DNA from: a virus
IMG/VR virus record: IMGVR_UViG_3300000303_000010
Reading direction: 5' to 3' (one strand)
Length of the DNA: 64,000 bases
Shown here: positions 2 to 63,893 of the stretch, one piece after another
Position numbering within the stretch: position 1 is the first letter of the stretch
How the letters are laid out: each line of letters starts with the position of its first letter
The notes under the pieces: model-generated
Databases searched by the model: none
Seen by the model: only the letters and a program-made list of their open reading frames with translations
What the model was told of the DNA's origin: nothing
Program-made: the position numbers and the translations under genes

Positions 2-289
2 AATGCAGTACTTTCAGGTATATCTAATGATAAATTGCCTTATTTATTGAGAAGAGGTAAAATCTTAGAAATGTATAAGGAGGGATTTTCATATACCGAG
101 ATTGCAAAGGAATTATACCCGGATAAAAAACAAGCTCATAAATTCATTAAGAGAATTATAGAAGATAGAGGAAGTAGAGTATATATATCTAAGTTGCATT
201 TAAGAAAGAAAACTCTTAGAACAATTTATGATATACATGTAGAGGATGATGAATCCTATATAACTGCCAATAATTTCGTAAATCATAAT
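2..289 (+). mobile_element. C-terminal part of an intein in terminase
   Basis: Intein blocks F/G: IYDIHVEDDESYITANNFVNHN followed by extein Thr (cat aat act at 284-292). Preceded by an HTH-like segment ILEMYKEGFSYTEIAKEL. Confidence 0.85.
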
Positions 290-1219
290 ACTGGTGGAGC
301 TGCTATAGTAAATTCTACACCCTACGGCATAGGCGGTTTCTACCACTCTACATGGGTTGATTCACTGAATCATAATAATCCTTTTAACCCTATCCGGTTA
401 TATTGGAAGATGCACCCAGAACGAGATGATAATTGGTACAATGAAATGGCAAGGGCTCTTGGCCCAAGAAGAACAGCCCAAGAGGTAGATGGAGACTTTC
501 TTGGATCAGGAAATACGGTATTCGATCTTGCTGATATTAAATCAATAGAAGATTGCTTATCGGATTACCCCCCAATCCAGGTTAAGTTAAATGGTCAATA
601 TCGAAGATTCAAGGATCCTGATTTCAATAAGGAATACTTTATAGGAGCGGATGTTGCAACTGGTAGAGCTACCGACTACTCTTCTTTCACCTGTATGGAT
701 AGAGATGGAGAAGAACAAGTAGTATATAAGGGAAGAATGGCAGTAGATCAATATGCTAAACTCTTAGGAGATACTGGATCCCTATTTAATGATGCAGTGA
801 TAGCTCCTGAATCCAATGATGTTGGATTGGCAGTTACTTCCTGGTTACAAGCCGAAGGTTATCCTAATCTTTACTTCTATCAGAAAATGGTAAAGAAGAA
901 AGGAGAGTCTAGACCCGAAATGGATAAATCCCCAGGATGGATGACTACTACTAAGAACCGATCAGTAATTATAAATGGATTGGAAACGGATGTTCGAGAA
1001 GGTAACTGTATTATCAAGGATCCCTTTTTCGTACAGGAAGCTTATACTTTCATTTATGATAGTATGAACCGTCCAGTAGCTTTGGGAAAACACCAAGCTA
1101 ATACTACTGGAGATATAGATATGGAATCTGAGGTATATGCAGATGATGATATTATGGGTAAAGCCATAACTAATCATATTAGGAAAGGTAAACAAAACAT
1201 AATCGTATTACCCAAATGA
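2..1219 (+). CDS. terL: Terminase large subunit (5' part outside the window; intein-containing)
   Basis: Frame is open from base 2. After the intein end come TGGAAIVNSTPYG (ATPase motif III region) and an RNase H-like nuclease domain (FIGADVATG...DYS, APESND, DDDIMG). Lies directly upstream of the portal. Confidence 0.92.
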   Translation, partial: NAVLSGISNDKLPYLLRRGKILEMYKEGFSYTEIAKELYPDKKQAHKFIKRIIEDRGSRVYISKLHLRKKTLRTIYDIHVEDDESYITANNFVNHNTGGAAIVNSTPYGIGGFYHSTWVDSLNHNNPFNPIRLYWKMHPERDDNWYNEMARALGPRRTAQEVDGDFLGSGNTVFDLADIKSIEDCLSDYPPIQVKLNGQYRRFKDPDFNKEYFIGADVATGRATDYSSFTCMDRDGEEQVVYKGRMAVDQYAKLLGDTGSLFNDAVIAPESNDVGLAVTSWLQAEGYPNLYFYQKMVKKKGESRPEMDKSPGWMTTTKNRSVIINGLETDVREGNCIIKDPFFVQEAYTFIYDSMNRPVALGKHQANTTGDIDMESEVYADDDIMGKAITNHIRKGKQNIIVLPK

Positions 1220-5761: not shown

Positions 5762-5813
5762 GGGGCTGGGATGGACGTGCCATGACCAATTGAATGATCC
5801 CAGCCCCTTTTTT
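5762..5813 (+). terminator. Intrinsic terminator-like hairpin after the capsid gene (24-nt loop)
   Basis: GGGGCTGGGAT (5762-5772) pairs perfectly with ATCCCAGCCCC (5797-5807), followed by T6. Confidence 0.7.
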
Positions 5814-12000: not shown

Positions 12001-12035
12001 GGGATAAGGATTCATCAGAGTCCTTATCCCTATTA
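12001..12035 (+). terminator. Hairpin between fibre genes (weak U-tract)
   Basis: GGGATAAGGATTC-ATCA-GAGTCCTTATCCC, a 13-bp stem with one G-U pair, followed by TATTA. Confidence 0.55.
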
Positions 12036-17729: not shown

Positions 17730-17770
17730 GGGGTGGGTTCCAGTAGTCACTGCGAGCTCACCCTTTTCTT
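17730..17770 (+). terminator. Long hairpin plus U-tract after the tube gene
   Basis: GGGTGGGTTC-CAGT-AGTC-ACTG-C-GAGCTCACCC followed by TTTTCTT. Confidence 0.65.
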
Positions 17771-17818
17771 CTGTCTAGCAAATCAATCATTTTATAACAA
17801 CCTAAAAACAACAAAACA

Positions 17819-25450: not shown

Positions 25451-27148
25451 ATGGCATTCTTAAATAAATGGTTGGAACCATATCAGAGATCATTCATCAG
25501 TATTAAGAGTAAATTACTTTTAGAACTTGATAATATCAAGGATGATGAAGGTAAACCCTTGATTACGGATAAATCCGAAGGGAACATTTTAGTACTTTTA
25601 ATCTCGATGTTTTCAGCAATAGCTGAAGTATTACATTTTTACATTGATAGAGTTGGAGAAGAGAGTTTTCTTGGTACAGCTAACCGTAGAGAATCTCTAG
25701 TCCGTCATGCTAACTCAGTAGATTATAATTTAAAGAGTTATAACCCTGCTACAGTAGATGTAATACTATCTCGAGAAGATACCTCTTCTACGGTGATATT
25801 ATCTTCTACTACTGTTCTAGAAGATTCTCAAGGATTGCCTTGGAAATTAATCAGAGATGAGGTGTTCCCTAAAAATGCCTCTTTAAAAACCGTAAGTTTA
25901 ATCCAGGTATCAGATTTAGTTTCTAAACAAATCCCCATAGAGGATATTGATGATGAGGGTAATTTAATCGTAGAGGGTTTTTCTAATGAATATTATTATG
26001 CAGAAGGTACTATGTCTTTGAGTATCTCTGGAGAAACCTATACATTAGTAGATAGTTTTAGTAAGGCTAAATCTACTGATACCGTGTTCAAAGTTACTCC
26101 TCTTAATAATACTTCGGTATTAGTTACTTTTGGAGATGGTCAATTTGGTAAAAAACCTTCCACTACGGGAACTATATTTTGTACATATCGAGTTACTAGT
26201 GGTTCTAGAGGTAATATCCCCGTAGGAACTTTAGATATTACTTGGCCTAATCATTCAGATATCCAAATAAAGAATGTTACTCCTGGTAGTGGAGGTTTTA
26301 ATATAGAGAATGGGGAAGTTTTACGCAACAGGATATCGGCTTCTATAAAAACTTTGGATGTAGCTATTTCTAAAGAAGATTTTAGGGATTTAGCTTTAAC
26401 TAGATCAGGAGTTGGTCAAGCTGCTATAGAATATGAGTGTGGTAGAAAACTTAATATTTATATAGCTACTACTGAAGGTAATGTTCCTAGCAAAGGATTA
26501 TGTTCAGATGTAAAAAATTATATTCAACAGCATTGTCCTCTGACTACTTGGCTGGATGTTAAACCTGTAGGAATTACTCCTATTGTATTAGAGGTTAATA
26601 TTACAGGGAAGAAATCTTATAAGAAAGATTATATACAAAATCAAGTAATTCTAGCACTTAATAATAGATATTCTGCTGGCAATACTAAAATAAACGAGGC
26701 AGTAAGATTATCCGATATATATGCACTTATAGATAATCTGGAATCGGTAGATTACCTTACTATCTCTAAATTTTATTTAGTACCTTGGCCTAAAAGGTTA
26801 AGTGGAGGTTCACAATTAAATATAGGGACTTACACTTTAACTAAATGTAACAATCCTCAAGAATATATCCTGGTAAAAACTCGCTATAGTTGGGCAGTAT
26901 ATTCCAAGTATAATAATACAACTAACTTACAGTTAAGTACCGGTAATGATATTAAAGTAGAGGATAAAAACAATGGTAACTCATTTACTATAGCTTTTGA
27001 CCCAACTACTGAATTACCCTCTGAAGGATCTAGGTATTCTATTTATATAACTTGGGGAAATGCTACTACCCAAGATCCTGGATTTAATCTTCCTGTGATA
27101 GATACTTCTTCTAATAATGTTACTTTAAATATAACAGAAACCTTATGA
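25451..27148 (+). CDS. Baseplate wedge protein (gpJ / T4 gp6-like)
   Basis: FYIDRVGEESFLGTA, VTFGDGQFGKKP, YRVTSGSRGN and AISKEDF motifs. Confidence 0.88.
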   Translation: MAFLNKWLEPYQRSFISIKSKLLLELDNIKDDEGKPLITDKSEGNILVLLISMFSAIAEVLHFYIDRVGEESFLGTANRRESLVRHANSVDYNLKSYNPATVDVILSREDTSSTVILSSTTVLEDSQGLPWKLIRDEVFPKNASLKTVSLIQVSDLVSKQIPIEDIDDEGNLIVEGFSNEYYYAEGTMSLSISGETYTLVDSFSKAKSTDTVFKVTPLNNTSVLVTFGDGQFGKKPSTTGTIFCTYRVTSGSRGNIPVGTLDITWPNHSDIQIKNVTPGSGGFNIENGEVLRNRISASIKTLDVAISKEDFRDLALTRSGVGQAAIEYECGRKLNIYIATTEGNVPSKGLCSDVKNYIQQHCPLTTWLDVKPVGITPIVLEVNITGKKSYKKDYIQNQVILALNNRYSAGNTKINEAVRLSDIYALIDNLESVDYLTISKFYLVPWPKRLSGGSQLNIGTYTLTKCNNPQEYILVKTRYSWAVYSKYNNTTNLQLSTGNDIKVEDKNNGNSFTIAFDPTTELPSEGSRYSIYITWGNATTQDPGFNLPVIDTSSNNVTLNITETL

Positions 27149-30100
27149 TGGATCTTAAAAAACTTATAGATCTCTTACCATATTACTTTAAGGAAAACGA
27201 TACTTATAAGGATTCTAATGGTAAGGGCATCTTAGAGCGTTTTCTAGAGATTTGTGGAGGATACTTTGAAGATCAAGTAGTGTCTAACACTGAGTCTTTA
27301 CTAGAAAATTTAGATGTAGAGAAATGCCCAGAGCATTTCCTACAATATTTTTGGGAATGGTTCGGATGTATACCTTATGCCGAGGGAGAATTTATTGACC
27401 CTAACAAATGGGCTCAATATTACAATGGCTTTGATTCCAAAGAGGAATATGAAGCTAAGAAGTATCACTGGATATACCAGAATGCTAAGGATCCTCTGAA
27501 TCTTTCTATGGATACTAAAAGAAGGATCCTTAAGTATGCTATCTCCTTATTGAAGTGCCGAGGTTCAAGGATATTCTTCGAAACTATGTTTAGGCTTTAT
27601 GGTATAGAGTTATACGAAGATATAATCAATGGTATAGAAACTGGAGAGGTACAAGATAGTACTAGAGACATTATTTTCGATGACCAAGATTATACCCAGT
27701 TCGATATAAACCACTTCGATAAGGAAAGATTCTGTACTCAATGTATACCTGTATATTTCAAAATCAAATACAAGGGGTCAGGAGATAAAGATTCGGAGGA
27801 GTTTAGGAATTTTGTTAATGCAGTAACTAATTTCATAAACAAGTATATACCTTTTAATGCTCATCCAATAATTAAATTCTATGATGGAGATACGGGTAGT
27901 TCTATAGACTATAATAAGATCTTTTACATTAGAGTAACCAATTTGGTTAATGGAGAAAGTATCTTATCTTCTTCTCGAGTAGATTCCGAAGGTAGTTCTA
28001 AAAATAACATTTTGACAATAAATCCCATTATTATAGGTTCTACTAAAATTCGCTATAAAGTGGATGTTTGGTCAGAAGAAGATCCTACAGGAGAAAATTC
28101 TACCTGGGCATTCTACGATGATTTAGATATTATTAATTGGGAAGGAGTAGTTATAGGTCAACAATTTAAAACTAATAAACAGGGGATTTTCACATTTACT
28201 TCGGAGGATTCTCGTAGGGTTATATATAATGTACAATCCTTACAAGCTCTTAGAGCTCAAGATACTAATGTACAACTTATAGCTTCCGTTAGCATCCTAC
28301 ACGGAGAGGATATCAAACAACCTAGTTATCAATATGTAAGGTATGAATGGTTAACCAAAGTAGTTACTCAGGAGGGTAAAGAGATATATAACCCATCTTC
28401 TATAAATGTGAATGATAGGTTTTATATAAGAACCATAAAATTTTCTAGGAATGAACAGGGTGTATTAGAGATAGATTATAAACCTACTGTAGAGGTAATA
28501 CCAGTACCCTTGGACACTCAGATGATAGTAAACCTTCCTTCAGGAGAATGGAGAGAAATTACTAACTTAGTTCCAGGAGAATATTATTTAGGTATAGAGG
28601 GTACTAACTATGGTTCATGGATAAAGATAACCGAGGATAGTTTTAATTTCTTGGTTACTTGTACTCCTGATAAACAATCCGTAAATTTTGCTTCAGAAGC
28701 TGAACGAGTATTAATCACTATCATTCCTGAAAATGTAAAAGAAGGTACTGATGCTTATAATCGAGCTATGAACATGATAAATGGTAAGAATGTTCTTTAT
28801 AGTAAGAAGGATAATCTTACCTTTACGTATAGGGAGGGTGGTTATTACTATACTTCAGGTAGAATTAAAGATTTTGGTATATATGACTTTACCTGTACTC
28901 TTAATAGGGCTAATATAAGAGAAGTACAGCCCTACATGGGTAGATTTTTTATAAATCGTGCCAGTACTTTTAATACTTGGGCTAATATAGATTCTATTAC
29001 TCCTAATCCCTTAGATTTAACTCCCACTGATGATAACCCTAATCCTAATAGGATATTAACCATAAGAGTATCTAAGTCTACGGGATTAGATAGTGAAAAT
29101 ATAACTAGGGGAGAGATATATGTAACCGTTCATTGTGATTTAGATAAACCCAATGAATATACTTACGGAGACAAATGGTTTAATCAATATGCGGGTAATA
29201 GAGTAAGGCCTGGGTATTACCGATTCACAGGTATACAGGAATTACAGGATATAAATCATGGTATGTTTTCATTAGAAGTACCTTTTGTTCAATATGAAGA
29301 ATTAGGTGAATCTGGGGAAAAACTTCGGGATAATGCTTATAAGGGTTATTTGGAAATAGAATTTAGGTACAATTCTCCCAATGGGATCCATATCTCTGAT
29401 CCTTTAGATGCTTATGTTACTTATAACCCAAGTGCAATCTATACACCAGAGTTTATTTCCATTATCCCTAAGAATTTAATTGAAAGGAATTGGTATGATT
29501 ACAACAGCGGAAAAGAAATAAACTGGAGTCAAAAATACCAGGGTACTCCAGAAACTGAAAACAATCCCTGTGTTGGTCAGGTAATATATCAAAAAACTTC
29601 TGATAATAGTGAAGCTGTATTTAGAATATATGGGGCTGACTTAACATCTTATACACTAGTTACAGAAGATGGTATCACTACTGAAGTAGAAGATATAGAT
29701 GCTAAAGAGATACATTTAAAAGAAGTAGGTACTTATACTTTTAATACTACTTTCCGAGAAAATCCCCTAGAACCTCCTTCGGAAGGAAATAACTGGAAGG
29801 ATATCATTGTAGTTGTTAAAGACTTTGTACCTACAACAAATATCTCTTGTTATCCTACACAGGAGATTATAGATAATGGGCCTTACCAAAATGGTACTAT
29901 TCAGGAGATAAATTTGGTACTTACTCCAGATAACCCTCGGTATTCTCATAGGGTAGTTATTTTTGATGGTGTTTATGTAAATGAAAGTGGAGGCTTATCT
30001 TTTAATGAAGGTGTAACTCCTACTTCTAAAATATATGAAGCTTCGATGGCATTAACCAATATTGCCATACTAAATAAACCTGGAGCGGTAATTTGTTGGG

Positions 30101-32172
30101 AAGGTAATTTCAAGACTCAACGAGAAAATTATACTTTGGAGGATTGGGTTAATAATCGTAAGGATGATTGGGTACTAGGAGTTAATTATTGTACCTATAA
30201 TTTTAACGATAAGAATGGTTTGATACATAGTATAGAGGTTAATCCCGAAACGGATTATATTAATCTAGAAAAATCCACGGCTTCTACTACAGCTATATTA
30301 AGGGACTCCTATGGAAATATACTTAGTGGGGATGATTATTTAATACGAGCTGTATATAGGTTTAACCTCGAGGGAGTATCGGGAGTTCAAGAAAAAACTC
30401 TTATACAAGCTTCACCTTTTGAATTCGAAATAGATTTTATACCTCTGGATAATAAGGTAGAATTCTATGCAGAGGGTAATAGTGAATTAGATCCAGCTGT
30501 ATTTAACATTACCGATGTAAAACCAAAAGTTGGAAGTATTCACATAGTTACTCCTGATGTTACAGAAGTAAGTCCTTGGACTGGACCTCATGAATTAGAG
30601 TTTCAGATTTTAGATAGTAACGGTAATAATATATCCAACGGACAGTTTACCCCAGCATATCTAAGGTCAGTATTGACTGTAAAAGATTCTCAAGGAAAGT
30701 TATATGATCCTGATGCCGGCTACCGTATAGAAAAGGGTTCTAACAGTTGGATCTTGATATTTTATAATCCCCCTATTTGGGAAGCTACGGGTAGTATTAC
30801 TATATCTATGGAAGGGTCTGAGGGTACTTGGCATTATACTTCTAAAGAGCCTGTAGTTCCTAGTGAATTAGAATTATATGATTTAGGAGTTGGTCAAAAC
30901 GAAACTTATATACCTGGAAGTTGGATTTGTAAATTTAGGATTAAACAATCTGATGGCAGTTATATGAGTTATTCAGATTTTCTTCTGAATGGTAATAAGG
31001 GTATCTTATATATTAATGGTAAAGCCATTACATCTATAGATTATAATCCAGGAGAAACTGATTATGACCATTTCTATATGGAAAGTAGTTCTGATGGAAA
31101 TGGTATATTGTATTTTAATCTTAGTGAAAGCCCCTCTCAGATATACTGGGAATGGAATAACCTAAGATCTAATACTCTTACAGCTGAGGGTGAACCCGAG
31201 GTAACTTCTTATAAGACTTTAGGTATATTAGTAGGCGCAGAATCTTCTGGTGTATTAGGAGGTGATCTTAATGAAATGCCTTGGCAATATCCTGATCAGG
31301 GAGTTAGAAAAGAAGTAACTTTACCAGTATGGGCAAGTCCTAGTACAGATAATAGTAGTTGGTTACATGGTCCATTCTTCATATGTGTATTGGAGGTATT
31401 TACAGATGGTCGTTTTGAAGCTAGACCAACAGATACTTTTGAAATGATCTCGGATAATAGTGAAGGCTTCTTACTTACTACTTTTGATAAACCCAGTCCA
31501 GAAGCTGGTATGATTGCAGTAGTTAAGGATAAACCTATGAATTGGGGAGAGGAAGGTGGAACTTTTGCTACACTATGGGATAAAGCCTTATACATTTCTA
31601 GAGAGTATGAGTTCAAAGTATCAGGTCAATCTAAAGGTGTTTTATTAGTAAAGGCTTCTAATGAAGATCAAGAACCTCCTACTATAAATGATTTGATTAT
31701 TACCTTTGGAGTAAACTCTTCTTTCTCGGGAGATCATAAGGATACTTTTAAATATGGTATAACCTTTGATATGGACTTGCAGACTAAGGATGGCTTCTCA
31801 GTTTCAGGTATTTTCCAATTATCTCGAAAGGATGATGGGTCTTTTGAAAGTGTAGCTCATGAATATACCTTTGATAGGCAGGGATCTAAGTTTGATTTCA
31901 GTATACTTAAGTCTAGTGTAATCCATTACTTATATTCAAGTGGTCAAAATACTCAACCAGAGACTGGATGTAACTTCGAACTTCAAATAGAATCTCTCAA
32001 TGATACTTGTAAAGTTATTACTGGAGGAGATAATTCCTCTGTGGCTTATTTAAAGCCCCATGATTGGCATACTACTAAGGAATATCCCTTAGTATCTGAT
32101 CGTAACTTCAGTGTGGAGATTAATAAGTCTGGAGATATACATCTTTATATACAACTAACGTTATCTAATTAA
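27145..32172 (+). CDS. Baseplate wedge gpI-like domain fused to a long beta-rich (Ig-like) arm
   Basis: The first ~150 aa resemble P2 gpI (LDVEKCPEHFLQYFWEWFG...RRILKYAISLLKCRGS). The remaining ~1500 aa are beta-strand rich. Confidence 0.6.
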   Translation: MMDLKKLIDLLPYYFKENDTYKDSNGKGILERFLEICGGYFEDQVVSNTESLLENLDVEKCPEHFLQYFWEWFGCIPYAEGEFIDPNKWAQYYNGFDSKEEYEAKKYHWIYQNAKDPLNLSMDTKRRILKYAISLLKCRGSRIFFETMFRLYGIELYEDIINGIETGEVQDSTRDIIFDDQDYTQFDINHFDKERFCTQCIPVYFKIKYKGSGDKDSEEFRNFVNAVTNFINKYIPFNAHPIIKFYDGDTGSSIDYNKIFYIRVTNLVNGESILSSSRVDSEGSSKNNILTINPIIIGSTKIRYKVDVWSEEDPTGENSTWAFYDDLDIINWEGVVIGQQFKTNKQGIFTFTSEDSRRVIYNVQSLQALRAQDTNVQLIASVSILHGEDIKQPSYQYVRYEWLTKVVTQEGKEIYNPSSINVNDRFYIRTIKFSRNEQGVLEIDYKPTVEVIPVPLDTQMIVNLPSGEWREITNLVPGEYYLGIEGTNYGSWIKITEDSFNFLVTCTPDKQSVNFASEAERVLITIIPENVKEGTDAYNRAMNMINGKNVLYSKKDNLTFTYREGGYYYTSGRIKDFGIYDFTCTLNRANIREVQPYMGRFFINRASTFNTWANIDSITPNPLDLTPTDDNPNPNRILTIRVSKSTGLDSENITRGEIYVTVHCDLDKPNEYTYGDKWFNQYAGNRVRPGYYRFTGIQELQDINHGMFSLEVPFVQYEELGESGEKLRDNAYKGYLEIEFRYNSPNGIHISDPLDAYVTYNPSAIYTPEFISIIPKNLIERNWYDYNSGKEINWSQKYQGTPETENNPCVGQVIYQKTSDNSEAVFRIYGADLTSYTLVTEDGITTEVEDIDAKEIHLKEVGTYTFNTTFRENPLEPPSEGNNWKDIIVVVKDFVPTTNISCYPTQEIIDNGPYQNGTIQEINLVLTPDNPRYSHRVVIFDGVYVNESGGLSFNEGVTPTSKIYEASMALTNIAILNKPGAVICWEGNFKTQRENYTLEDWVNNRKDDWVLGVNYCTYNFNDKNGLIHSIEVNPETDYINLEKSTASTTAILRDSYGNILSGDDYLIRAVYRFNLEGVSGVQEKTLIQASPFEFEIDFIPLDNKVEFYAEGNSELDPAVFNITDVKPKVGSIHIVTPDVTEVSPWTGPHELEFQILDSNGNNISNGQFTPAYLRSVLTVKDSQGKLYDPDAGYRIEKGSNSWILIFYNPPIWEATGSITISMEGSEGTWHYTSKEPVVPSELELYDLGVGQNETYIPGSWICKFRIKQSDGSYMSYSDFLLNGNKGILYINGKAITSIDYNPGETDYDHFYMESSSDGNGILYFNLSESPSQIYWEWNNLRSNTLTAEGEPEVTSYKTLGILVGAESSGVLGGDLNEMPWQYPDQGVRKEVTLPVWASPSTDNSSWLHGPFFICVLEVFTDGRFEARPTDTFEMISDNSEGFLLTTFDKPSPEAGMIAVVKDKPMNWGEEGGTFATLWDKALYISREYEFKVSGQSKGVLLVKASNEDQEPPTINDLIITFGVNSSFSGDHKDTFKYGITFDMDLQTKDGFSVSGIFQLSRKDDGSFESVAHEYTFDRQGSKFDFSILKSSVIHYLYSSGQNTQPETGCNFELQIESLNDTCKVITGGDNSSVAYLKPHDWHTTKEYPLVSDRNFSVEINKSGDIHLYIQLTLSN

Positions 32173-34435: not shown

Positions 34436-34442
34436 TTATGAG

Positions 34443-34477
34443 AAAAGAGGATCCTATTTTATAAGGATCCTCTTTTT
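34443..34477. terminator. Bidirectional intrinsic terminator between convergent genes
   Basis: AAAAGAGGATCCT-ATTTTATA-AGGATCCTCTTTT(T): a perfect 13-bp inverted repeat with A/T tracts on both sides. Confidence 0.85.
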
Positions 34478-34481
34478 GTGT

Positions 34482-35129
34482 TTAATAATGTAGTTCTTTT
34501 TTGGCTTTATCTAACCAAAATTCTATATCCTCTTTTAGTTCGGTAAAGTATCTGATAGAATTCCTGGTTTTAGGCATATTAAAGAAATCTACTAAAATTA
34601 AATTAGTTACTCTAGCTCCATCCTTAATCTGCTCTTTTATATAAGGTGGAGGTGTAACTGTTACTTCCCAAACTAACTTAGCATCTGTATTTAGATGTTC
34701 CATCATATAATCATTTAACATCTTCCACATTTCATTGTGAGCAGTAACTTCCTTAGTATCATCCTCTAACTCTTTACTATCATCAAATAAATCTTCTAAT
34801 CGACATTGATTTTGATAATAGGATGCTCGTTCAGTATAGGCATATCGAAGTAATTTACTTTTATAAGTACTAAGGGAGGCAAGGATCTGGGCTTTTAAAT
34901 GTTCCTCTGTATCGGTCCCATAATATTTATTAAATACAAATAACATCTTATCCCAAAAATAGGACTGTATAATATCCGGAGTGAGATCAAATCTCTTGGC
35001 ATCAATTTGCCTAACAAGGTTTCGAATAACTGGCTTACAGATTTTATACATCCGTTGGAATACGGCTTGGTCATATTCCTTCATAGGTTTTAACCTATGG
35101 ATCTCGGAGCCATTGTAATTAGTTTGCAT
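34482..35129 (-). CDS. Phage sigma-70-like (ECF-size) transcription factor
   Basis: Region-2-like segment AVFQRMYKICKPVIRNLVRQ...DIIQSYFWDKMLFVFNKY and region-4-like C-terminus ending DKAKKELHY. Only credible minus-strand gene in the window. Confidence 0.6.
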   Translation of the reverse strand: MQTNYNGSEIHRLKPMKEYDQAVFQRMYKICKPVIRNLVRQIDAKRFDLTPDIIQSYFWDKMLFVFNKYYGTDTEEHLKAQILASLSTYKSKLLRYAYTERASYYQNQCRLEDLFDDSKELEDDTKEVTAHNEMWKMLNDYMMEHLNTDAKLVWEVTVTPPPYIKEQIKDGARVTNLILVDFFNMPKTRNSIRYFTELKEDIEFWLDKAKKELHY

Positions 35130-35153
35130 AATTATAATTATTTAAAGTGTTAA

Positions 35154-35187
35154 TGCAAATATAATAATAATATATGTAATATGCAAA
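35154..35187 (-). promoter_or_regulatory. Bacteroidota primary-sigma promoter for the sigma-like gene
   Basis: Minus strand reads TTTG(-33)-N20-TATATTTG(-7)CA (plus-strand CAAA 35184-35187 and CAAATATA 35156-35163), 26 nt upstream of the ATG. Matches the TTTG...TAnnTTTG consensus. Confidence 0.8.
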
Positions 35188-35305
35188 TATTTTAATAAAA
35201 ATTATATATTTAAGCTGTGGATGGTAGCTATATGGTAAGAGGTTAGATTGAGCTACACTTCATCCAGTACTATATCAGTGTACATCTAAACTATGTTTAT
35301 GCAAT

Positions 35306-41488: not shown

Positions 41489-41648
41489 TAATACCTTCCA
41501 ACTATGATTTTCCAAAGTACTATGTATGTGTGCAATATCATTCCGAGGGAACTGAGGAATGATATTAGGCCTACTACTAAAGAAAATCCCAGAAAAGGAT
41601 TCCACTAAAAATCAATAAACATAAGTATAACATAAAACTTTAAACACA

Positions 41649-51042: not shown

Positions 51043-51083
51043 TTGTTTCCATAAGTAATATATTAGTAATGTGTTGGTTGAAG

Positions 51084-51141: not shown

Positions 51142-53337
51142 ATGGCTAAGAACAAATTGAAAATCCCCACAAAGAATGAACTTCTAAAGAAGTATGGGGA
51201 TATTATTAAAGTAGCCTCTAATAAGGAGGATACAGGTTTATGGTTACCTTCTACATTCTTTGCCCTTAATTATCAGATGGGTGGAGGTATACCTTTTGGG
51301 AAAATCCTTGAGATAGCTGGTGAGGAGAGTTCAGGAAAATCCCTAATAGCTTATAACTTTGCCTATGCTTGTCAACAACTGGGTGGACATGTTATATGGG
51401 TAGATGCCGAACAATCCTGGATGAACTCATGGGCAGAAGAGAATGGAGTTGATCCTGAAAAGGTAACTGTAATAAATGAAACTCGAATAGAATATATTGC
51501 AGATGCCGTAGCAGATTTAGCATTATATCTAAGAGCACAATTAACTAATAATGAACCAATATTACTGGTATTGGATTCGATTGCTGCTACTGATTGCTCG
51601 GATAATATAGATGCAAAGATGACCGATGCAAAAGCTGAAATGGGAGGTAGAGCAAAGGCATTGTATAAATATTTCCGAATTAGGAACGAATTGTTTTTCA
51701 GATTAGGTATAACCCAGATATATATTAACCAATTAAGAACTGCCTTAAATGTCGGATTTGGAAAAGATAATACCTGCCTACATTATGATACTGTAATACC
51801 TTTTGTAGATGGTACTTCTATGAAAATAGGGGAAATAGTTAAGAATAAGGTATCTAAAGAGGTATGGAGTTATAATGAGGTTACACATAAATTCGAACCT
51901 AAACCCATTGTGGATTGGATAAGGAAATCCGAAACTAAAAAATGGATCCAATTTAAGACTGAGGGTCCAGAAACTACTAATGGTTTTAATGGGTTTACTT
52001 GTACTTATACTCATCATTGTTTAACTAATCATGGATGGAAAAAAGCCATAGATATTACTTTTGAGGATAAGCTTATTACCAAACAAAGGGGAGTAATAAA
52101 TGGTACTCTTAAAGATTTTCTTTGGGGTACTATACCTTTTGATTGTTCACTTTATAGTAAACATGGTAAGGGTATTACTCGTATAACTTTTAGTAATGGT
52201 ATACAGGAAGAGTATTTACTTTGGAAAACTCACATGATAGAAAAGGCATTTCCTATGGTGAATAAGGGAGAATCTAAGTATATCTCTAAAAGGGGTTATG
52301 CTGAGTTATATGATATTCAACAACAAATAGGTAAAGAAAGAGACCCTCTAAAATTATGGGATACGGATCGCGATTTATCAGATCTTACTTTAGCTATTTG
52401 GTACATGGATGATGGTCATAAGTATAATTCAGTAACTGTAGGTATTGCTATATCTCCTAAACGTACGGATTTAAATAAATTGGCCCAGTACCTCACTGAT
52501 AAATGTGGTTTACCCTGTAAAACTTATGAATACGGTATAAAGTTTACCAACAAGGGCACAATTAAGTTGATGGAAAGGATAAATAGATATGTTATACCTT
52601 CTATGCAATATAAACTCTTAGATGCCTATAAAGGTAACTTTAAAGAGTTTGAGTTAGAGTATCAAGAAGAATATATACCAAAAGAGGTAAATATCCTATC
52701 CATAAACAAAGAATTCGATATTAAGAATAGAAGATTCAGAAGACCCTATAAGAGATTTAAATATGACATCACAATCCCAGGAAACCACAATTTCCTCGCA
52801 GGATCAACCGAACAAGGTATCCTCGTTCATAACACAACTACGGGAGGTGCAGCACTTAAATTCTATGCTTCTATCAGACTTGCTTTCTATTCAGGCAAAA
52901 CAGTTACAATTAAAAGCAAAGGTAAAGAACGTAAGGTTGGAAAACTTGTCACCATCAGATTACTTAAGAATAAAGTTGCTCCTCCAAGACCTACAATATC
53001 AAAATGTCCTGTGTATTTCAACCCTAAATTCCATGATGTTGGATTTGATAGATACTATGGATTAGAAGATGTATTAGTAGAAAATGATATTGTAGAAAAA
53101 TCCTCAGGAGGAGTTTATAAATACAAGGGTAGTACATTATGCCGTGGTGAAGAGAAATTCCAAAAGCTAATGGAAGAAGATGATTCTCTCAGACGCAAAT
53201 TACTTAGGAAAGCAAATATAAATACGATTGGAACTACTAAAAAGAGGATCCAAGAGTTAAATAAAAATTACTTCCCAGTAGAGGGAGTAGAATACGAATC
53301 TTATAATACGGAGGGAGAAGAAAATGAAGATGAATAA
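51142..53337 (+). CDS. recA: RecA/UvsX recombinase, intein-containing
   Basis: GGGIPFGKILEIAGEESSGKS, WVDAE, LVLDSIAA, INQLR, TTTGGAALKFYAS and KNKVAPP. Confidence 0.95.
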   Translation: MAKNKLKIPTKNELLKKYGDIIKVASNKEDTGLWLPSTFFALNYQMGGGIPFGKILEIAGEESSGKSLIAYNFAYACQQLGGHVIWVDAEQSWMNSWAEENGVDPEKVTVINETRIEYIADAVADLALYLRAQLTNNEPILLVLDSIAATDCSDNIDAKMTDAKAEMGGRAKALYKYFRIRNELFFRLGITQIYINQLRTALNVGFGKDNTCLHYDTVIPFVDGTSMKIGEIVKNKVSKEVWSYNEVTHKFEPKPIVDWIRKSETKKWIQFKTEGPETTNGFNGFTCTYTHHCLTNHGWKKAIDITFEDKLITKQRGVINGTLKDFLWGTIPFDCSLYSKHGKGITRITFSNGIQEEYLLWKTHMIEKAFPMVNKGESKYISKRGYAELYDIQQQIGKERDPLKLWDTDRDLSDLTLAIWYMDDGHKYNSVTVGIAISPKRTDLNKLAQYLTDKCGLPCKTYEYGIKFTNKGTIKLMERINRYVIPSMQYKLLDAYKGNFKEFELEYQEEYIPKEVNILSINKEFDIKNRRFRRPYKRFKYDITIPGNHNFLAGSTEQGILVHNTTTGGAALKFYASIRLAFYSGKTVTIKSKGKERKVGKLVTIRLLKNKVAPPRPTISKCPVYFNPKFHDVGFDRYYGLEDVLVENDIVEKSSGGVYKYKGSTLCRGEEKFQKLMEEDDSLRRKLLRKANINTIGTTKKRIQELNKNYFPVEGVEYESYNTEGEENEDE
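51775..52833 (+). mobile_element. Intein in RecA loop L2 region (353 aa)
   Basis: Starts CLHYDTVIPFVDG and ends GILVHN before T. LAGLIDADG-type motif LAIWYMDDG; the first motif is degenerate (LWGTIPFDCSL). Confidence 0.92.
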
Positions 53338-58410: not shown

Positions 58411-58980
58411 ATGAACTCTAAACGCAAATACCAATTTAGTAATCTATATTCTATCAGAAAAAATAGTAAGAAAATATTGACAAGGCATCATTGGTTATCT
58501 AATGTACCTGGCCATGATTATCATGTTACTAAGCATGGTAAAGTATATAAGAGATTAGATAATAATTATAGATGGATACGTATATCCACTTATTCGGATG
58601 GAAAGCCTGATAGTTATTTAAAATGTAAAATAGATTGTAAATCCTGGTTATTACATAGGTTAATAGCTACGGTATATTTACCTAATCCAAATGGTTTACC
58701 TTTAGTTATGCACCTAAACAATAATAAAAGAGATTGTAGGGTACATAATTTAAAATGGGGAACCGAATTAGAAAATATGTTACAAGCTTGGTTTGATGGC
58801 TGTTTTAAAGTACCTAATAAAATTGTTTATTATAGGGATGTACACAACCTATACAATCAAGGTTTATCTATTAAAGAGATAGCTAATATAGTACCCATAC
58901 ATATCTCATCAATACGTAGGATACTTAAAAACGATGGATTAATACGTCATATTTCTAAATTTAAAGGTTATGATAAATAG
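58411..58980 (+). mobile_element. Free-standing HNH homing endonuclease (NUMOD4-like + HNH + HTH)
   Basis: YHVTKHGKV; HRLIATVYLPNPNGLPLVMHLNNNKRDCRVHNLKWGTELEN; C-terminal HTH GLSIKEIAN. Confidence 0.88.
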
Positions 58981-59518
58981 TAAGAAAAAGGGCTCTAAAT
59001 TCGAAAGGGCTATTGCTAAGTGGTTTACAGAATGGTCTGGATATAAATTTGAAAGGAATCGGGCAGGATCTGGGGCATGGCATTCTAACAAGGATTCCAC
59101 TTCAGATCTTACCTGTACTGATGAAAAACATGCTCATAGATGTAAAATATCTATAGAATGTAAAAACTACAAGGATATAAAATTCGAACATATCCTATTA
59201 GGTAATAAGAATTGTGATATTCTCAAATTTTGGGAACAAGCTTATAAGGATGCTAAAAGATCAAAGAAAGTTCCTATACTTTGTATGAGATATAACTCTA
59301 TGCCTAAGGAAGAATTCTTCTTTGTAGTGGGAAATGCTTTAGCCCAAATTATATTCGCATATCCCCCCGTGATGGCTTACCCTTTTATGACCATTAGTAC
59401 ACCAAATCATGGAGATCTGAATATATTTATGGCAAGTGCCATATTTAAAACTGTACCGTATAAAGCTATCCATAAGCAAGCTAAATTTATATTAAGGGAA
59501 AGAAATGAAGACGCATAG
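58970..59518 (+). CDS. Holliday junction resolvase (Hjc-like PD-(D/E)XK)
   Basis: SKKKGSKFERAIAKWF...SDL...SIECKN. Confidence 0.8.
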   Translation: MINSKKKGSKFERAIAKWFTEWSGYKFERNRAGSGAWHSNKDSTSDLTCTDEKHAHRCKISIECKNYKDIKFEHILLGNKNCDILKFWEQAYKDAKRSKKVPILCMRYNSMPKEEFFFVVGNALAQIIFAYPPVMAYPFMTISTPNHGDLNIFMASAIFKTVPYKAIHKQAKFILRERNEDA

Positions 59519-60230
59519 GACATACTGTATATTTTACCTTGAACCCAAATATTATAAGGATATTAATGAGAAGTTGGAAGAACTGGGATTAAATAGAAAG
59601 GTAAAAGCCATAATCCCAGTTCTTCAGATACTTAAGCGTAATAGTAGAGGTAAAATGTTATTCGAAAATGTTCCTATACTGTTCAACTATGGATTTATGA
59701 AAATGCCTACAGAATTGGCGTACTCTAGATCTTTTCTCAATAAACTACGTAAAGGAATACCTGGGATAAAAGCTTGGCTTAAAGATACTGAAACTTTATT
59801 CTCTAGAAAGAAAAGAAGGAGAATAGACAATGCTGAGGATTGGGATGACTTCTCAAAGGTAGCTACGGTTCCTAAAAAGGTAGTAAGAAGATTTATCAAG
59901 TTAGCTAAGGCAAATAAAACTTATTCAGTAGAAGAGTTGATGAGCCTTAAGATAGGGGATTATATTACCTTAATTAATTACCCTTATGAAGGAGTAGATG
60001 CTACGGTATTATCTATCGATTATAATGAGAAGATGGTAGAGGTAGTAATGTATCCAGAATATGGAAAACTTATTACTAAGTTACCCTTTGATGATGTATT
60101 CTATACCATATACCGAGATTATAATCCAGATATACTAATAGGTCAGGATAAACCCTTTAATCCCAATACCTATACCCAGGATTATTTGGATAGATTGAAA
60201 ACCCTTAAACGTAAAAGTAAGAGAAAATGA
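59505..60230 (+). CDS. nusG: NusG-family transcription elongation factor paralogue
   Basis: NGN domain (YCIFY..., AIIPVLQI..., PILFNYGFMKM, LRKGIPGIKAWL) and KOW domain (KIGDYITLINYPYEGVDATVLSIDY...LPFDDV) align by eye with E. coli NusG. Confidence 0.85.
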   Translation: MKTHRTYCIFYLEPKYYKDINEKLEELGLNRKVKAIIPVLQILKRNSRGKMLFENVPILFNYGFMKMPTELAYSRSFLNKLRKGIPGIKAWLKDTETLFSRKKRRRIDNAEDWDDFSKVATVPKKVVRRFIKLAKANKTYSVEELMSLKIGDYITLINYPYEGVDATVLSIDYNEKMVEVVMYPEYGKLITKLPFDDVFYTIYRDYNPDILIGQDKPFNPNTYTQDYLDRLKTLKRKSKRK

Positions 60231-61207
60231 CACCCTATCAAGAGAAAGCTTGGGATTGCTTAAAAGAAAAGGAAAGGCAATGCCTATTCTTAGCTATATC
60301 CGAAAATAAATCTACTTGTGAAGCTAGTCAGCTTATGGGTATGACTCATTACAAGTATATGGAGTTAAAAGAACGGGCTGAGAAATTCTTTAGATTATTC
60401 AGTGACTTCTTTGAAAAACACGAGGCAATATTTAGACCAGATTGTCCTTGTGAATTCCAATTTAGGCATTATATAGAAGGGGTTATCGAAAAAAGAATAG
60501 GATCTAAGGAAGCCAGATTATTTACAGGTGATGCTAGCCAAATACTTCCAAAGGTAAATCACAGAACTATCACAAGGAATATGAGATGGCTTATAGAAAC
60601 AGGTAATCCTTGGGATATTGATACCGTGAAATTTATTCGAGAATTCGATAGATGGAATACTTTTAGGATTCTACCTGTAATGCTTCAACAGCCATCAGCA
60701 TACAAGAGAAGATTAAATAGAAAATATAAAGCTTATATCAAATATTTACTTCATAAGATGCCAGAATGGTTCTTAGACAAAGTAAAAGAAAAGTATTGGT
60801 ATAAGACTAATTACCCCAAAGAAAAGTATTATATTGTGATAATATATCCTTCAGATAGGATTAATTATAAGATAATATCTGTAAGACCAAAAGAGGAAGT
60901 AGTTAAGCAATTAACTCAATGGTATTTCTATGTATTCAAAACTGAGGATGATGCAGATACTTTCGGATTTATGGTTACTAGGTTTAATGTTAAATCTCGA
61001 GGAGTTTCACTGGGACAAAAATTCTGGCCAGAATTTCGATTATGTATATCTCAGGCAATAAATTACAAAGAGATTAATAACATGGACCTTGGGGTATCTT
61101 CTCTCGACAATGCTTACCATGTAAGTAGAAGGAAGAAAAAACTCTCCAAAGACGATCCTAACCACATGGTCGGGCTAGCCAGAGCAAAAGAGAAAATTTT
61201 TTATTAA
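60227..61207 (+). CDS. Putative transcription regulator with N-terminal sigma-region-4-like HTH
   Basis: WDCLKEKERQCLFLAISENKSTCEASQLMGMTHYKYMELKERA follows the L..L..KER..L.L....S..E.A..LG pattern. Confidence 0.55.
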   Translation: MTPYQEKAWDCLKEKERQCLFLAISENKSTCEASQLMGMTHYKYMELKERAEKFFRLFSDFFEKHEAIFRPDCPCEFQFRHYIEGVIEKRIGSKEARLFTGDASQILPKVNHRTITRNMRWLIETGNPWDIDTVKFIREFDRWNTFRILPVMLQQPSAYKRRLNRKYKAYIKYLLHKMPEWFLDKVKEKYWYKTNYPKEKYYIVIIYPSDRINYKIISVRPKEEVVKQLTQWYFYVFKTEDDADTFGFMVTRFNVKSRGVSLGQKFWPEFRLCISQAINYKEINNMDLGVSSLDNAYHVSRRKKKLSKDDPNHMVGLARAKEKIFY

Positions 61208-61210
61208 AAT

Positions 61211-61244
61211 ATTGCATACATAAAAAATTATATGTATATTTGCA
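61211..61244 (+). promoter_or_regulatory. Bacteroidota primary-sigma (early) promoter
   Basis: ATTGCA-...-TATATTTGCA with the same 20-bp spacing as the 35154-35187 promoter, upstream of ATG 61270. Confidence 0.75.
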
Positions 61245-63356: not shown

Positions 63357-63893
63357 ATGGCAAAGAAAAATGCAAAGAAAGCCAAGGAATTGGCAGTAGT
63401 TTCAGAAGTGACACTTGAAAATGGAACTAAGATCATCCGTTATGAGGATGGTTCAGTAGAGATTATCCCGGCTCCTTTCAAACTCTCTGCAGAGGATGTA
63501 GAATCTATCTTTGGAGAAGAGGAAGAAGAAGAGGATGATGACGATGATGATTCGGAAGAGGAAGAGGATAATGAAGACTCTGACGATGAGGATGAAGAAG
63601 AAGACGATGAGGAAGACGATGATGATGATGATGATGATGAGGCCGAGGAGGAAGATGACGATGACTCCGATGACGATGACGACGAAGAGGAGGAAGAGGA
63701 GGAAGAAATAACTCCGGAATCTCTTGCAGAAATGGACTTCGAGGAACTCGAGGATGTATGCGAAGATAAGGAATTGGATGTAGATCCCGATGATTACGAT
63801 GAAGATGAGGTAGAGAAACTCCGCAAGGATGTTGCAAAGGCCCTCGGAATCAAGCTTCCTGCTCCTAAGAAGTCTAAAAAAGGAAAGAAGTAA
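63357..63893 (+). CDS. Highly acidic protein with C-terminal Rho-N/SAP-like helices
   Basis: 59 of 64 residues are D/E in 63516-63707; Lys-rich termini; LAEMDFEELEDVCEDKEL motif. Confidence 0.75.
   Translation: MAKKNAKKAKELAVVSEVTLENGTKIIRYEDGSVEIIPAPFKLSAEDVESIFGEEEEEEDDDDDDSEEEEDNEDSDDEDEEEDDEEDDDDDDDDEAEEEDDDDSDDDDDEEEEEEEEITPESLAEMDFEELEDVCEDKELDVDPDDYDEDEVEKLRKDVAKALGIKLPAPKKSKKGKK

Follow-up and report, generated by a model that had tools for sequence, protein, structure and literature searches.

Of all transcription factors, only NusG is conserved across every domain of life; capsules, toxins, antibiotics and conjugation are under the control of its specialised paralogues. One of these paralogues, LoaP (Bacillota and others), suppresses intrinsic termination in long operons, and no other paralogue is known to require an RNA element. 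Arg73 of RfaH is one of the residues binding ops DNA. In the UpxY proteins of Bacteroides, ~40 bp of DNA, comprising the non-template strand and the upstream duplex, are recognised through the NGN domain alone, which does not read the RNA of the pause hairpin. With regard to phages, a NusG-like late regulator has been proposed for the prophages of H. pylori. Phage-encoded copies of NusG are annotated here and there, and we know of none that has been studied.

The stretch of DNA analysed here (64 kb, referred to as the window) represents most of a myovirus genome, with nearly all genes on the + strand and organized in two co-directional gene trains. The virion block (> 34 kb) encodes the TerL C-terminus, portal, protease, major head protein, tail sheath, tape measure and baseplate. 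The replication block (~26 kb) encodes a DnaB-like helicase, primase, helicase, nucleotide metabolism genes, PolA, a gp32-like SSB, a UvsX-like recombinase, an exonuclease and SbcDC, and these are followed 3' of SbcDC by an HNH endonuclease, a PDDEXK_15 nuclease, the NusG-like gene and a gene of 326 codons (Table 1). The NusG-like gene is therefore the penultimate gene of the replication train, which is closed by this gene and its 3' neighbour. Its first codon (ATG) overlaps the preceding nuclease gene at the 3' end of the latter, and its last codon the start of the next gene (ATGA). No match to an RNA polymerase family was obtained among the scanned ORFs of the window, and a minus-strand gene of 215 codons (34482-35129), which an earlier note on this DNA had read as a phage sigma factor, gave no family matches.

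Table 1. Coordinates of the features in the 64-kb window.
Feature	Position	Strand	Remarks
Intrinsic-terminator-like hairpin	5762..5813	+	11-bp GC-rich stem and T6, directly after the major head protein gene
Terminator-like hairpin with T-rich tail	17730..17773	+	After the gene 3' of the tail sheath gene (presumed tube)
PDDEXK_15 / RusA-like resolvase gene	58970..59518	+	Upstream neighbour; conserved synteny SbcD-SbcC-PDDEXK-NusG-like
NusG-like protein gene	59505..60230	+	241 aa; ORF and homologue searches
NGN domain	59505..59915	+	Residues 1-137; contains the beta3 motif VPILFNYGF
Family-specific loop insertion	59784..59855	+	Residues 94-117, DTETLFSRKKRRRIDNAEDWDDFS; gap in NusG/RfaH (hhalign)
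RKKRRR	59805..59822	+	Residues 101-106
KOW beta-barrel	59943..60104	+	Residues 147-200; profile and fold matches
C-terminal extension with basic tail	60105..60227	+	Residues 201-241
326-aa neighbour	60227..61207	+	N-terminal ~60 residues (60227-60409) with sigma-70 region 4 / LuxR-type HTH fold
Near-consensus Bacteroidota host promoter	61211..61242	+	ATTG-N20-TATATTTG, directly 3' of the gene pair

A host-type promoter lies directly 3' of the 326-aa gene and marks the start of a region of small ORFs that is presumed to be early; the gene pair thus closes the replication train just before this region. Three relatives (L004, L008 and L012) possess the exact TTTG-N20-TAnnTTTG at the equivalent site, and more copies in the ensuing small-ORF region. 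The consensus TTTG-N19-21-TAnnTTTG was found in none of the + strand intergenic gaps of the virion and replication blocks but clusters in the small-ORF region that follows the pair, and one consensus Bacteroidota promoter drives the minus-strand gene. The late block, as seen in a near-identical contig (L016), starts ~4.3 kb upstream of position 1 of the window. It is preceded by a divergent regulatory region in which 45 nt of the 35150-35195 region recur; the two minus-strand genes beside these duplicated promoter cassettes are not paralogues. The likely assignment of the host to the Bacteroidota was made from two lines only, the gut origin and the promoter consensus, as seen 3' of the pair in the window and its relatives. 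A search of bacterial genome contigs identified no prophage and no host, and the matches comprised phage contigs that had been wrongly binned into MAGs (labelled Collinsella, Romboutsia, Mycoplasma and Dysosmobacter) and a single contig of 598 bp from a Streptomyces tendae assembly. It is worth noting that the gene pair is located at the end of an operon and not at its head, unlike UpxY, LoaP and TaA; this placement was counted against the elongation role that we favour below.

The open reading frame and its RKKRRR hexamer, both pointed out in the earlier note, were confirmed on the sequence at the positions listed in Table 1. A Pfam search of the 241-aa protein gave no match at E<=1, NusG_N and KOW included, and a PHROGs search gave no meaningful match. 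Matches to NCBIfam models were all sub-threshold (15-21 bits, against model cut-offs of 100-150 bits) and all to the NusG family, namely UpxY (E 3.5e-4), mycoplasma-type NusG and RfaH. When 39 close homologues, sharing 41-85% identity, were scanned singly, the UpxY model was matched by 19 (best E 4e-7) and the LoaP, RfaH, NusG and Spt5 models by fewer, while no family outside the NusG models was identified; the scores per model give the family no subfamily placement. About 168 homologues, nearly all of 225-250 aa, were present in a collection clustered at 90%, the longest contigs with homologues being those of 70-93 kb from gut metagenomes. An exhaustive phmmer search resulted in 164 clusters at the 50% level, and a few of the homologues carry the JGI name 'NusG'. 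A set of 96 cluster representatives was used as the wider family throughout.

The profile of the 39 close homologues matched only NusG/Spt5 KOW domains in the PDB. Using hhalign, the profile of the 96 sequences aligned with E. coli NusG with a probability of 88% (E 3e-6), spanning residues 4-200 of the phage protein and 4-178 of NusG, i.e. the full length, and with RfaH with a probability of 79% (E 1.6e-5). The AF2 model has a pLDDT of ~90 for residues 1-96 and moderate values for the KOW barrel, with values < 50 at residues 97-116, 137-146 and 200-219. The top 50 PDB matches of this model in Foldseek were all NusG/RfaH/Spt5 (E down to 1e-11), and the same outcome was obtained with the AlphaFold DB clusters. 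The NGN domain superimposed on that of RfaH (8pen_P) with a Z of 10.4 and an rmsd of 2.6 A over 101/101 residues, and on that of Mtb NusG with a Z of 9.6; for the KOW domain and the E. coli NusG CTD, the values were Z 8.2 and 2.1 A over 59/59 residues. Since the profile-profile and fold matches were to NusG/RfaH/Spt5 only, the NGN and KOW architecture claimed in the earlier note is real, though the curated sequence thresholds were not reached. The basic C-tail that had been described with it is present, with 8 K/R among the final 15 residues, but lacks conservation, the relatives having 0-9 such residues; within the C-terminal extension, Y203 is conserved and the tail is variable.

The most invariant stretch of the family, V-P-[LI]-L-F-N-Y-G-F (residues 56-64), is located in beta3, and P57, Y62, G63 and F64 were each kept in at least 93 of the 96 family members. 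In the hhalign alignments, this motif corresponds to E48-P-L-F-P-N-Y-L-F56 of RfaH (residues 49-57 cited) and to F-F-P-G-Y-V-L-V of NusG, such that its near-invariant residues are aligned with F51, Y54 and F56 of RfaH. This region of RfaH forms the hydrophobic pocket in which the beta-prime clamp helices are bound, and we take the motif to serve in RNAP docking. From the motif and the model, the NGN domain of the phage protein is predicted to dock on the beta-prime clamp helices of the host RNAP. As the Pfam and NCBIfam thresholds were not reached, RNAP binding is proposed here from the fold and this one motif only.

The alignments also revealed an insertion between beta4 and alpha3. In both of them, ~20 phage residues, TETLFSRKKRRRIDNAEDWDDFS, have no counterpart in NusG/RfaH; the gap is flanked on the beta4 side by phage IPGIKAWLK (versus PRVMGFIGG in NusG and GVSHFVRFG in RfaH) and on the alpha3 side by phage VATVPKKVVRRF (versus RPAPISDKEVDAI in NusG). 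Relative to the E. coli proteins NusG and RfaH, the insert measures ~20-24 residues, and it comprises a cluster of basic residues and, after it, an acidic/aromatic DDFS motif. It is predicted to be disordered in the AF2 model (pLDDT < 50) and is the best-conserved part of the protein among the 39 close homologues, all of which follow the consensus [KR]-K-K-[KR]-x-R-I-D-N-A-E-D-[FW]-D-D-F-S, with R106, N109, D114, D115, F116 and S117 invariant. At least four K/R in the six positions of the basic cluster are kept by 39/39 of these sequences, and on this showing the cluster is evidently not a product of chance. Positions 101-104 are most often Lys and position 105 most often Ala, leaving R106 as the sole fixed arginine. 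The charged insert that had been noticed late in the NGN domain is therefore genuine and conserved in the clade, as evidenced by the hhalign gap and the close homologues. Conservation did not extend to the wider family, in which the region is hypervariable: loop lengths range from 5 to 50 residues with a median of 24 (3-4 in NusG/RfaH), loops of > 8 residues are found in 88/96 and a short NusG-like loop in eight members, at least four K/R in the six positions in only 30/96, and a DDF/DDY motif in only 15/96.

The insertion begins one residue beyond K93, which is aligned with R73 of RfaH by hhalign, and a K/R is found at position 93 in 38/39 close and 60/96 distant members. By analogy with this neighbouring RfaH position and with the UpxY NGN, which reads DNA, the charged loop is more likely to be an element contacting DNA, RNAP or a partner than an RNA reader of the boxB type.

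The 326-aa protein encoded next to the NusG-like gene yielded an AF2 model with a pLDDT of 86. Its N-terminus superimposed on sigma region 4 with a Z of 8.8 and an rmsd of 1.3 A over 55 residues, and Foldseek gave TM values of 0.7-0.79 (normalised to the sigma4 chains) at 0.9 A. The same sigma4 lead was obtained in an Atlas feature search, and a full-length relative in the AlphaFold DB is annotated as a sigma70 region 4 type 2 (r4_2) domain protein; the remaining 260 residues matched no solved structure in the PDB. Pairing of the two genes was strict: a homologue of the neighbour (290-330 aa) was observed 3' of the NusG-like gene in all 10 distinct evaluable loci, the window included, a locus being evaluable when its sequence continues past the NusG-like gene. 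The two reading frames overlap in most of these loci, and the pairing holds in members only 22-30% identical to the query and in one member lacking the loop insertion. A complex prediction for the two proteins scored 0.00, which speaks neither for nor against binding.

A role in reading long phage operons, as proposed in the earlier note, is the most plausible function of the protein. Our preferred reading, to which we assign a probability of roughly 0.55, is that of a phage NusG-family elongation or antitermination factor that would substitute for NusG and its paralogues on host RNAP and keep the polymerase processive over long, promoter-poor gene trains, probably with the sigma4 neighbour. 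In such a mechanism, the NGN domain would bind host (Bacteroidota) RNAP at the beta-prime clamp helices and displace the host NusG and its paralogues, so that elongation complexes on phage DNA would become resistant to pausing and to both Rho-dependent and hairpin termination. The two long trains, replication (~26 kb) and virion (> 34 kb), would then be transcribed in full. The charged loop would project from the edge of the NGN domain beside the RfaH R73 position and most likely add contacts with a protein partner, with a surface of RNAP specific to the lineage, or with DNA (the non-template strand or the duplex upstream); specific reading of RNA hairpins by the loop would be less likely. Location of the two genes as the last of the replication train is consistent with production in mid-infection, which would be in time for late gene expression. 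In favour of this reading, besides the fold, the beta3 motif, the insertion and K93, we count the UpxY precedent in the likely host phylum, the terminator-like hairpins within the virion block, the scarcity of host promoters inside the two blocks, the lack of RNAP matches among the scanned ORFs and the conserved synteny with the sigma4 neighbour.

The strict pairing among members only 22-30% identical, together with the sigma region 4 fold of the neighbour, could also point to a role in initiation, in which the NGN protein and its neighbour would appropriate the host core RNAP for middle/late promoters in the manner of T4 gp55 and gp33. We regard such a role as unlikely. The geometry it calls for, with the NGN domain on the beta-prime clamp helices (the site of sigma region 2) and the sigma4 domain of the neighbour bound to both promoter DNA and the beta flap, we hold to be likewise doubtful. 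The heads of the replication and virion blocks, which are devoid of consensus host promoters, and the T4-like replication module (gp32, UvsX, SbcCD) are consistent with initiation. Against it, we know of no NGN protein that takes part in recognising or melting promoters, the 215-aa minus-strand gene has no family matches, and no promoter-like motif is shared beyond the duplicated cassette, which is limited to close relatives. A broader arrangement, in which the two proteins would together take over the RNAP, with the NGN domain on the clamp-helix site, the sigma4 domain of the partner on the flap and DNA, and the loop (KKKxR-IDNAEDFDDFS) touching DNA or the partner, appears rather improbable to us; if true, this two-part system would be an undescribed way to switch host RNAP to middle/late genes while keeping processivity.

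As the site predicted for the NGN domain is the one used by all NGN proteins (on the basis of RfaH and NusG), the protein might instead act mainly by competition, blocking host NusG and its UpxY-type paralogues without being recruited to particular operons; we think this quite unlikely. Effects such as relief of the Rho-dependent silencing of foreign DNA or disturbed expression of capsule operons would be expected from a blocker, but we are just as sceptical of them. The failure to find a recruitment element in the window agrees with such competition, and so does the distance of the KOW domain and C-terminal extension from NusG (13-18% identity), a divergence through which contacts with Rho or S10 may be lost. 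The mechanism overlaps with that of the elongation or antitermination factor and is hard to separate from it by sequence. On the other hand, the strict pairing with a neighbour of DNA-binding type hints at greater specificity, and the gene lies in the replication train and not among the small genes behind the host-type promoters, presumed early, a location which argues against an immediate take-over function. Competition with host UpxY, which the earlier note had suggested for the factors controlling capsule loci, is possible in principle, since both proteins would occupy the same site on RNAP.

The earlier note had further proposed that RKKRRR guides the factor to hairpins within the virion operon. 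Hairpins resembling terminators are indeed present in the virion block (at 12001 and 18663 in addition to those of Table 1), in the replication block at 51080 and, as a bidirectional element, at 34442. Those at 5762 and 17730 are ordinary terminator-like structures, the element at 41534 has no T tract, and the sequences at the sites named as recognition targets are unrelated to one another. Folding of the 35218 leader (35205-35305) was no better than that of shuffled sequences (z +0.24), as was that of the late-operon leader of L016 (z ~+0.25), and a non-exhaustive search identified no conserved leader hairpin in the regions examined. Exact k-mers common to at least three intergenic regions of the window included none that was informative, the UpxY ops consensus YGCGNAGCR had 0 matches in the 64 kb, and neither an ops-like sequence nor any other shared element for recruitment turned up in the window; scans for generic sigma-70 promoters and for terminators showed no enrichment over shuffles. 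The 12-mer AGCTGWGGATGG, common to both operon heads, was considered as a recruitment site and rejected; it is confined to the closest relatives, L016 and L036, and hence offers no family-wide site. Phages that lack a dedicated antiterminator commonly carry internal hairpins behind their abundant structural genes, and this, together with the lack of a recruitment element in the window, was counted against the elongation or antitermination factor.

Motifs of the lambda N/Tat type combine conserved arginines with one defined target hairpin, and positions 101-105 are mostly Lys or variable. That RKKRRR is an arginine-rich motif which binds RNA hairpins, as lambda N does boxB, in order to read through those of the virion operon is therefore the least probable of the readings weighed, for while the basic cluster is conserved in the close clade, the late block does contain terminator-like hairpins and one NusG paralogue, LoaP, requires an RNA hairpin, the cluster is dominated by lysine with a single invariant Arg, is missing or altered in most of the wider, hypervariable family, is predicted to be disordered and is followed by an equally conserved acidic DDFS motif, the loop adjoins the position of a DNA contact (RfaH R73), the hairpins share no common motif, the 35218 and late-leader regions fold no more strongly than shuffles, and LoaP itself binds through E40, R41 and I143 from both domains with no arginine-rich motif. 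RNA-guided recognition of the N type is thus unsupported, with nothing specific to favour it.

Phage NusG/RfaH-like proteins are already present in annotation, though uncharacterised. What is added here is the mapping of the loop and its evolutionary behaviour, the rejection of the arginine-rich-motif reading, the pairing with the sigma4-fold neighbour, and the position of the pair relative to host-type promoters. Phage contigs of 70-93 kb from the human gut commonly carry the family, some clusters of which have > 1,000 member sequences, and two of its features are directly testable with the recombinant Bacteroides RNAP system (PMC11685472), namely the charged loop, which is expanded, clade-specific and located on the DNA-facing edge of the NGN domain, and the sigma4 neighbour. 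Should the pair act together, this would explain the expression of trains of 26 kb and > 34 kb that have no recognisable internal host promoters, and the pair might serve as a portable processivity module for the genetics of Bacteroidota.

Other phage proteins named NusG or RfaH in BFVD have the same fold, and neither the expansion of the beta4-alpha3 loop nor an obligatory sigma4 neighbour was described in the literature that we searched. With housekeeping NusG/Spt5, the phage protein shares the two-domain NGN-KOW organization over its full length, but it has no Pfam NusG_N/KOW match, possesses the loop as well as an extended C-terminus, and is encoded by a phage, away from the secE-nusG-rplK context. 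LoaP is likewise of the NusG family and is itself an antiterminator of long operons; unlike what was proposed for the phage protein, its RNA is bound through the three residues named above and not through a basic insert, and its model (NF033641) was matched below the cut-off by 8/39 members, with a best E of 1.8e-5.

RfaH provides the best structural match for the NGN fold (8pen_P), and the resemblance extends to beta3 (PLFPNYLF versus PILFNYGF in the phage protein) and to K93 at the position of the DNA-contacting R73; the two proteins would share a site on RNAP and have the same presumed role in long operons. They differ in that identity is only ~16-20%, the NCBIfam RfaH models score far below their cut-offs, and the phage protein has a loop of 20-24 aa after beta4 and a C-terminal extension of 40 aa, while the HTT motif is not kept. 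Among the residues with which RfaH reads ops (K10, H20, R23, Q24 and R73), only the R73 position is kept, as K/R. The position of E48 is occupied by Val, and the CTD is modelled as a beta-barrel and not as the autoinhibited alpha-helical form with its interdomain lock of the E48-R138 type, so that neither autoinhibition of the RfaH kind nor fold switching is indicated.

UpxY differs from the phage protein in several respects. The query scored 20.6 bits against a cut-off of 100 bits for NF033644; UpxY is encoded by the first gene of a polysaccharide operon, followed by upxZ, whereas the phage gene is penultimate in a replication train; the phage partner is a sigma4-type HTH protein of 326 aa and not the small inhibitor UpxZ; and the opsX leader hairpin with its YGCGNAGCR sequence is nowhere in the window. 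Nevertheless, the UpxY model was the NCBIfam model most often matched (19/39 members), the likely host phylum is the same, UpxY too is encoded beside a dedicated second regulator gene, and its DNA-reading NGN domain offers the best analogy for the loop in the NGN domain of the phage protein.

The regulatory signals at the heads of the gene trains proved to be duplicated: one regulatory cassette occurs in two copies, one at the head of the replication train and the other at the head of the late train. The cassette comprises the following parts: (i) a hairpin with the stem AGAGGATCC, (ii) one or more minus-strand genes, (iii) a near-identical 45-nt block that encloses a consensus minus-strand host promoter, and (iv) AGCTGWGGATGG on the plus strand. 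The 12-mer of the cassette was present only in the closest relatives, L036 and the near-identical contig L016. The two minus-strand proteins that adjoin the copies are unrelated to each other. For the 215-aa minus-strand gene of the window, a consensus host promoter was confirmed, and its product matched nothing in Pfam or PHROG.

Coordinates of the features, in the window or in related phage loci
Feature	Locus	Position	Strand	Remark
Regulatory cassette	window	34442-35305
Regulatory cassette	L016	1340-2673
215-aa protein gene	window	34482-35129	-
1675-aa ORF	window	27145-32172		behind baseplate wedge gene
UvsX/RecA-like recombinase	window	51142-53337		731 aa
HNH endonuclease	window	58411-58980		free-standing, C-terminal HTH; between SbcC and PDDEXK_15 genes
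Large terminase	L016	5652-8201		849 aa; window 2-1219 is its C-terminal part
178-aa protein	window	63357-63893		presumed early region
Bacteroidota-type promoter	window	61211-61242	+	directly after sigma4-like gene
Bacteroidota-type promoter	L004	11714-11745		directly after sigma4-like gene
Bacteroidota-type promoter	L008	7712-7743		directly after sigma4-like gene
Bacteroidota-type promoter	L012	9571-9602		directly after sigma4-like gene

The HNH endonuclease is probably a mobile homing enzyme, because the same position lacks it in the relatives L004, L006 and L012. Matches to intein-splicing, NUMOD4 and HNH_3 domains lie in the middle of the L016 large terminase, which is probably interrupted by an intein. 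The recombinase measures 731 aa in the window versus 377 aa in L004, and its residues 354-492 match a LAGLIDADG homing endonuclease, which makes an intein or endonuclease insertion likely. The 1675-aa ORF returned zero matches in Pfam and PHROG.

Directly 3' of the sigma4-like gene, a Bacteroidota-type promoter, TTTG-N20-TAnnTTTG followed by CA, was found in four related phages, the window copy being near-consensus. Further copies occur in the small-ORF region next downstream, which is probably the early region. There, a stretch of about 100 residues in the 178-aa protein consists almost entirely of Asp and Glu; this protein may mimic DNA or serve take-over in some other way. As a clue to the host phylum, the Bacteroidota-type promoters behind the sigma4-like gene and in the small-ORF region are the best pointer.
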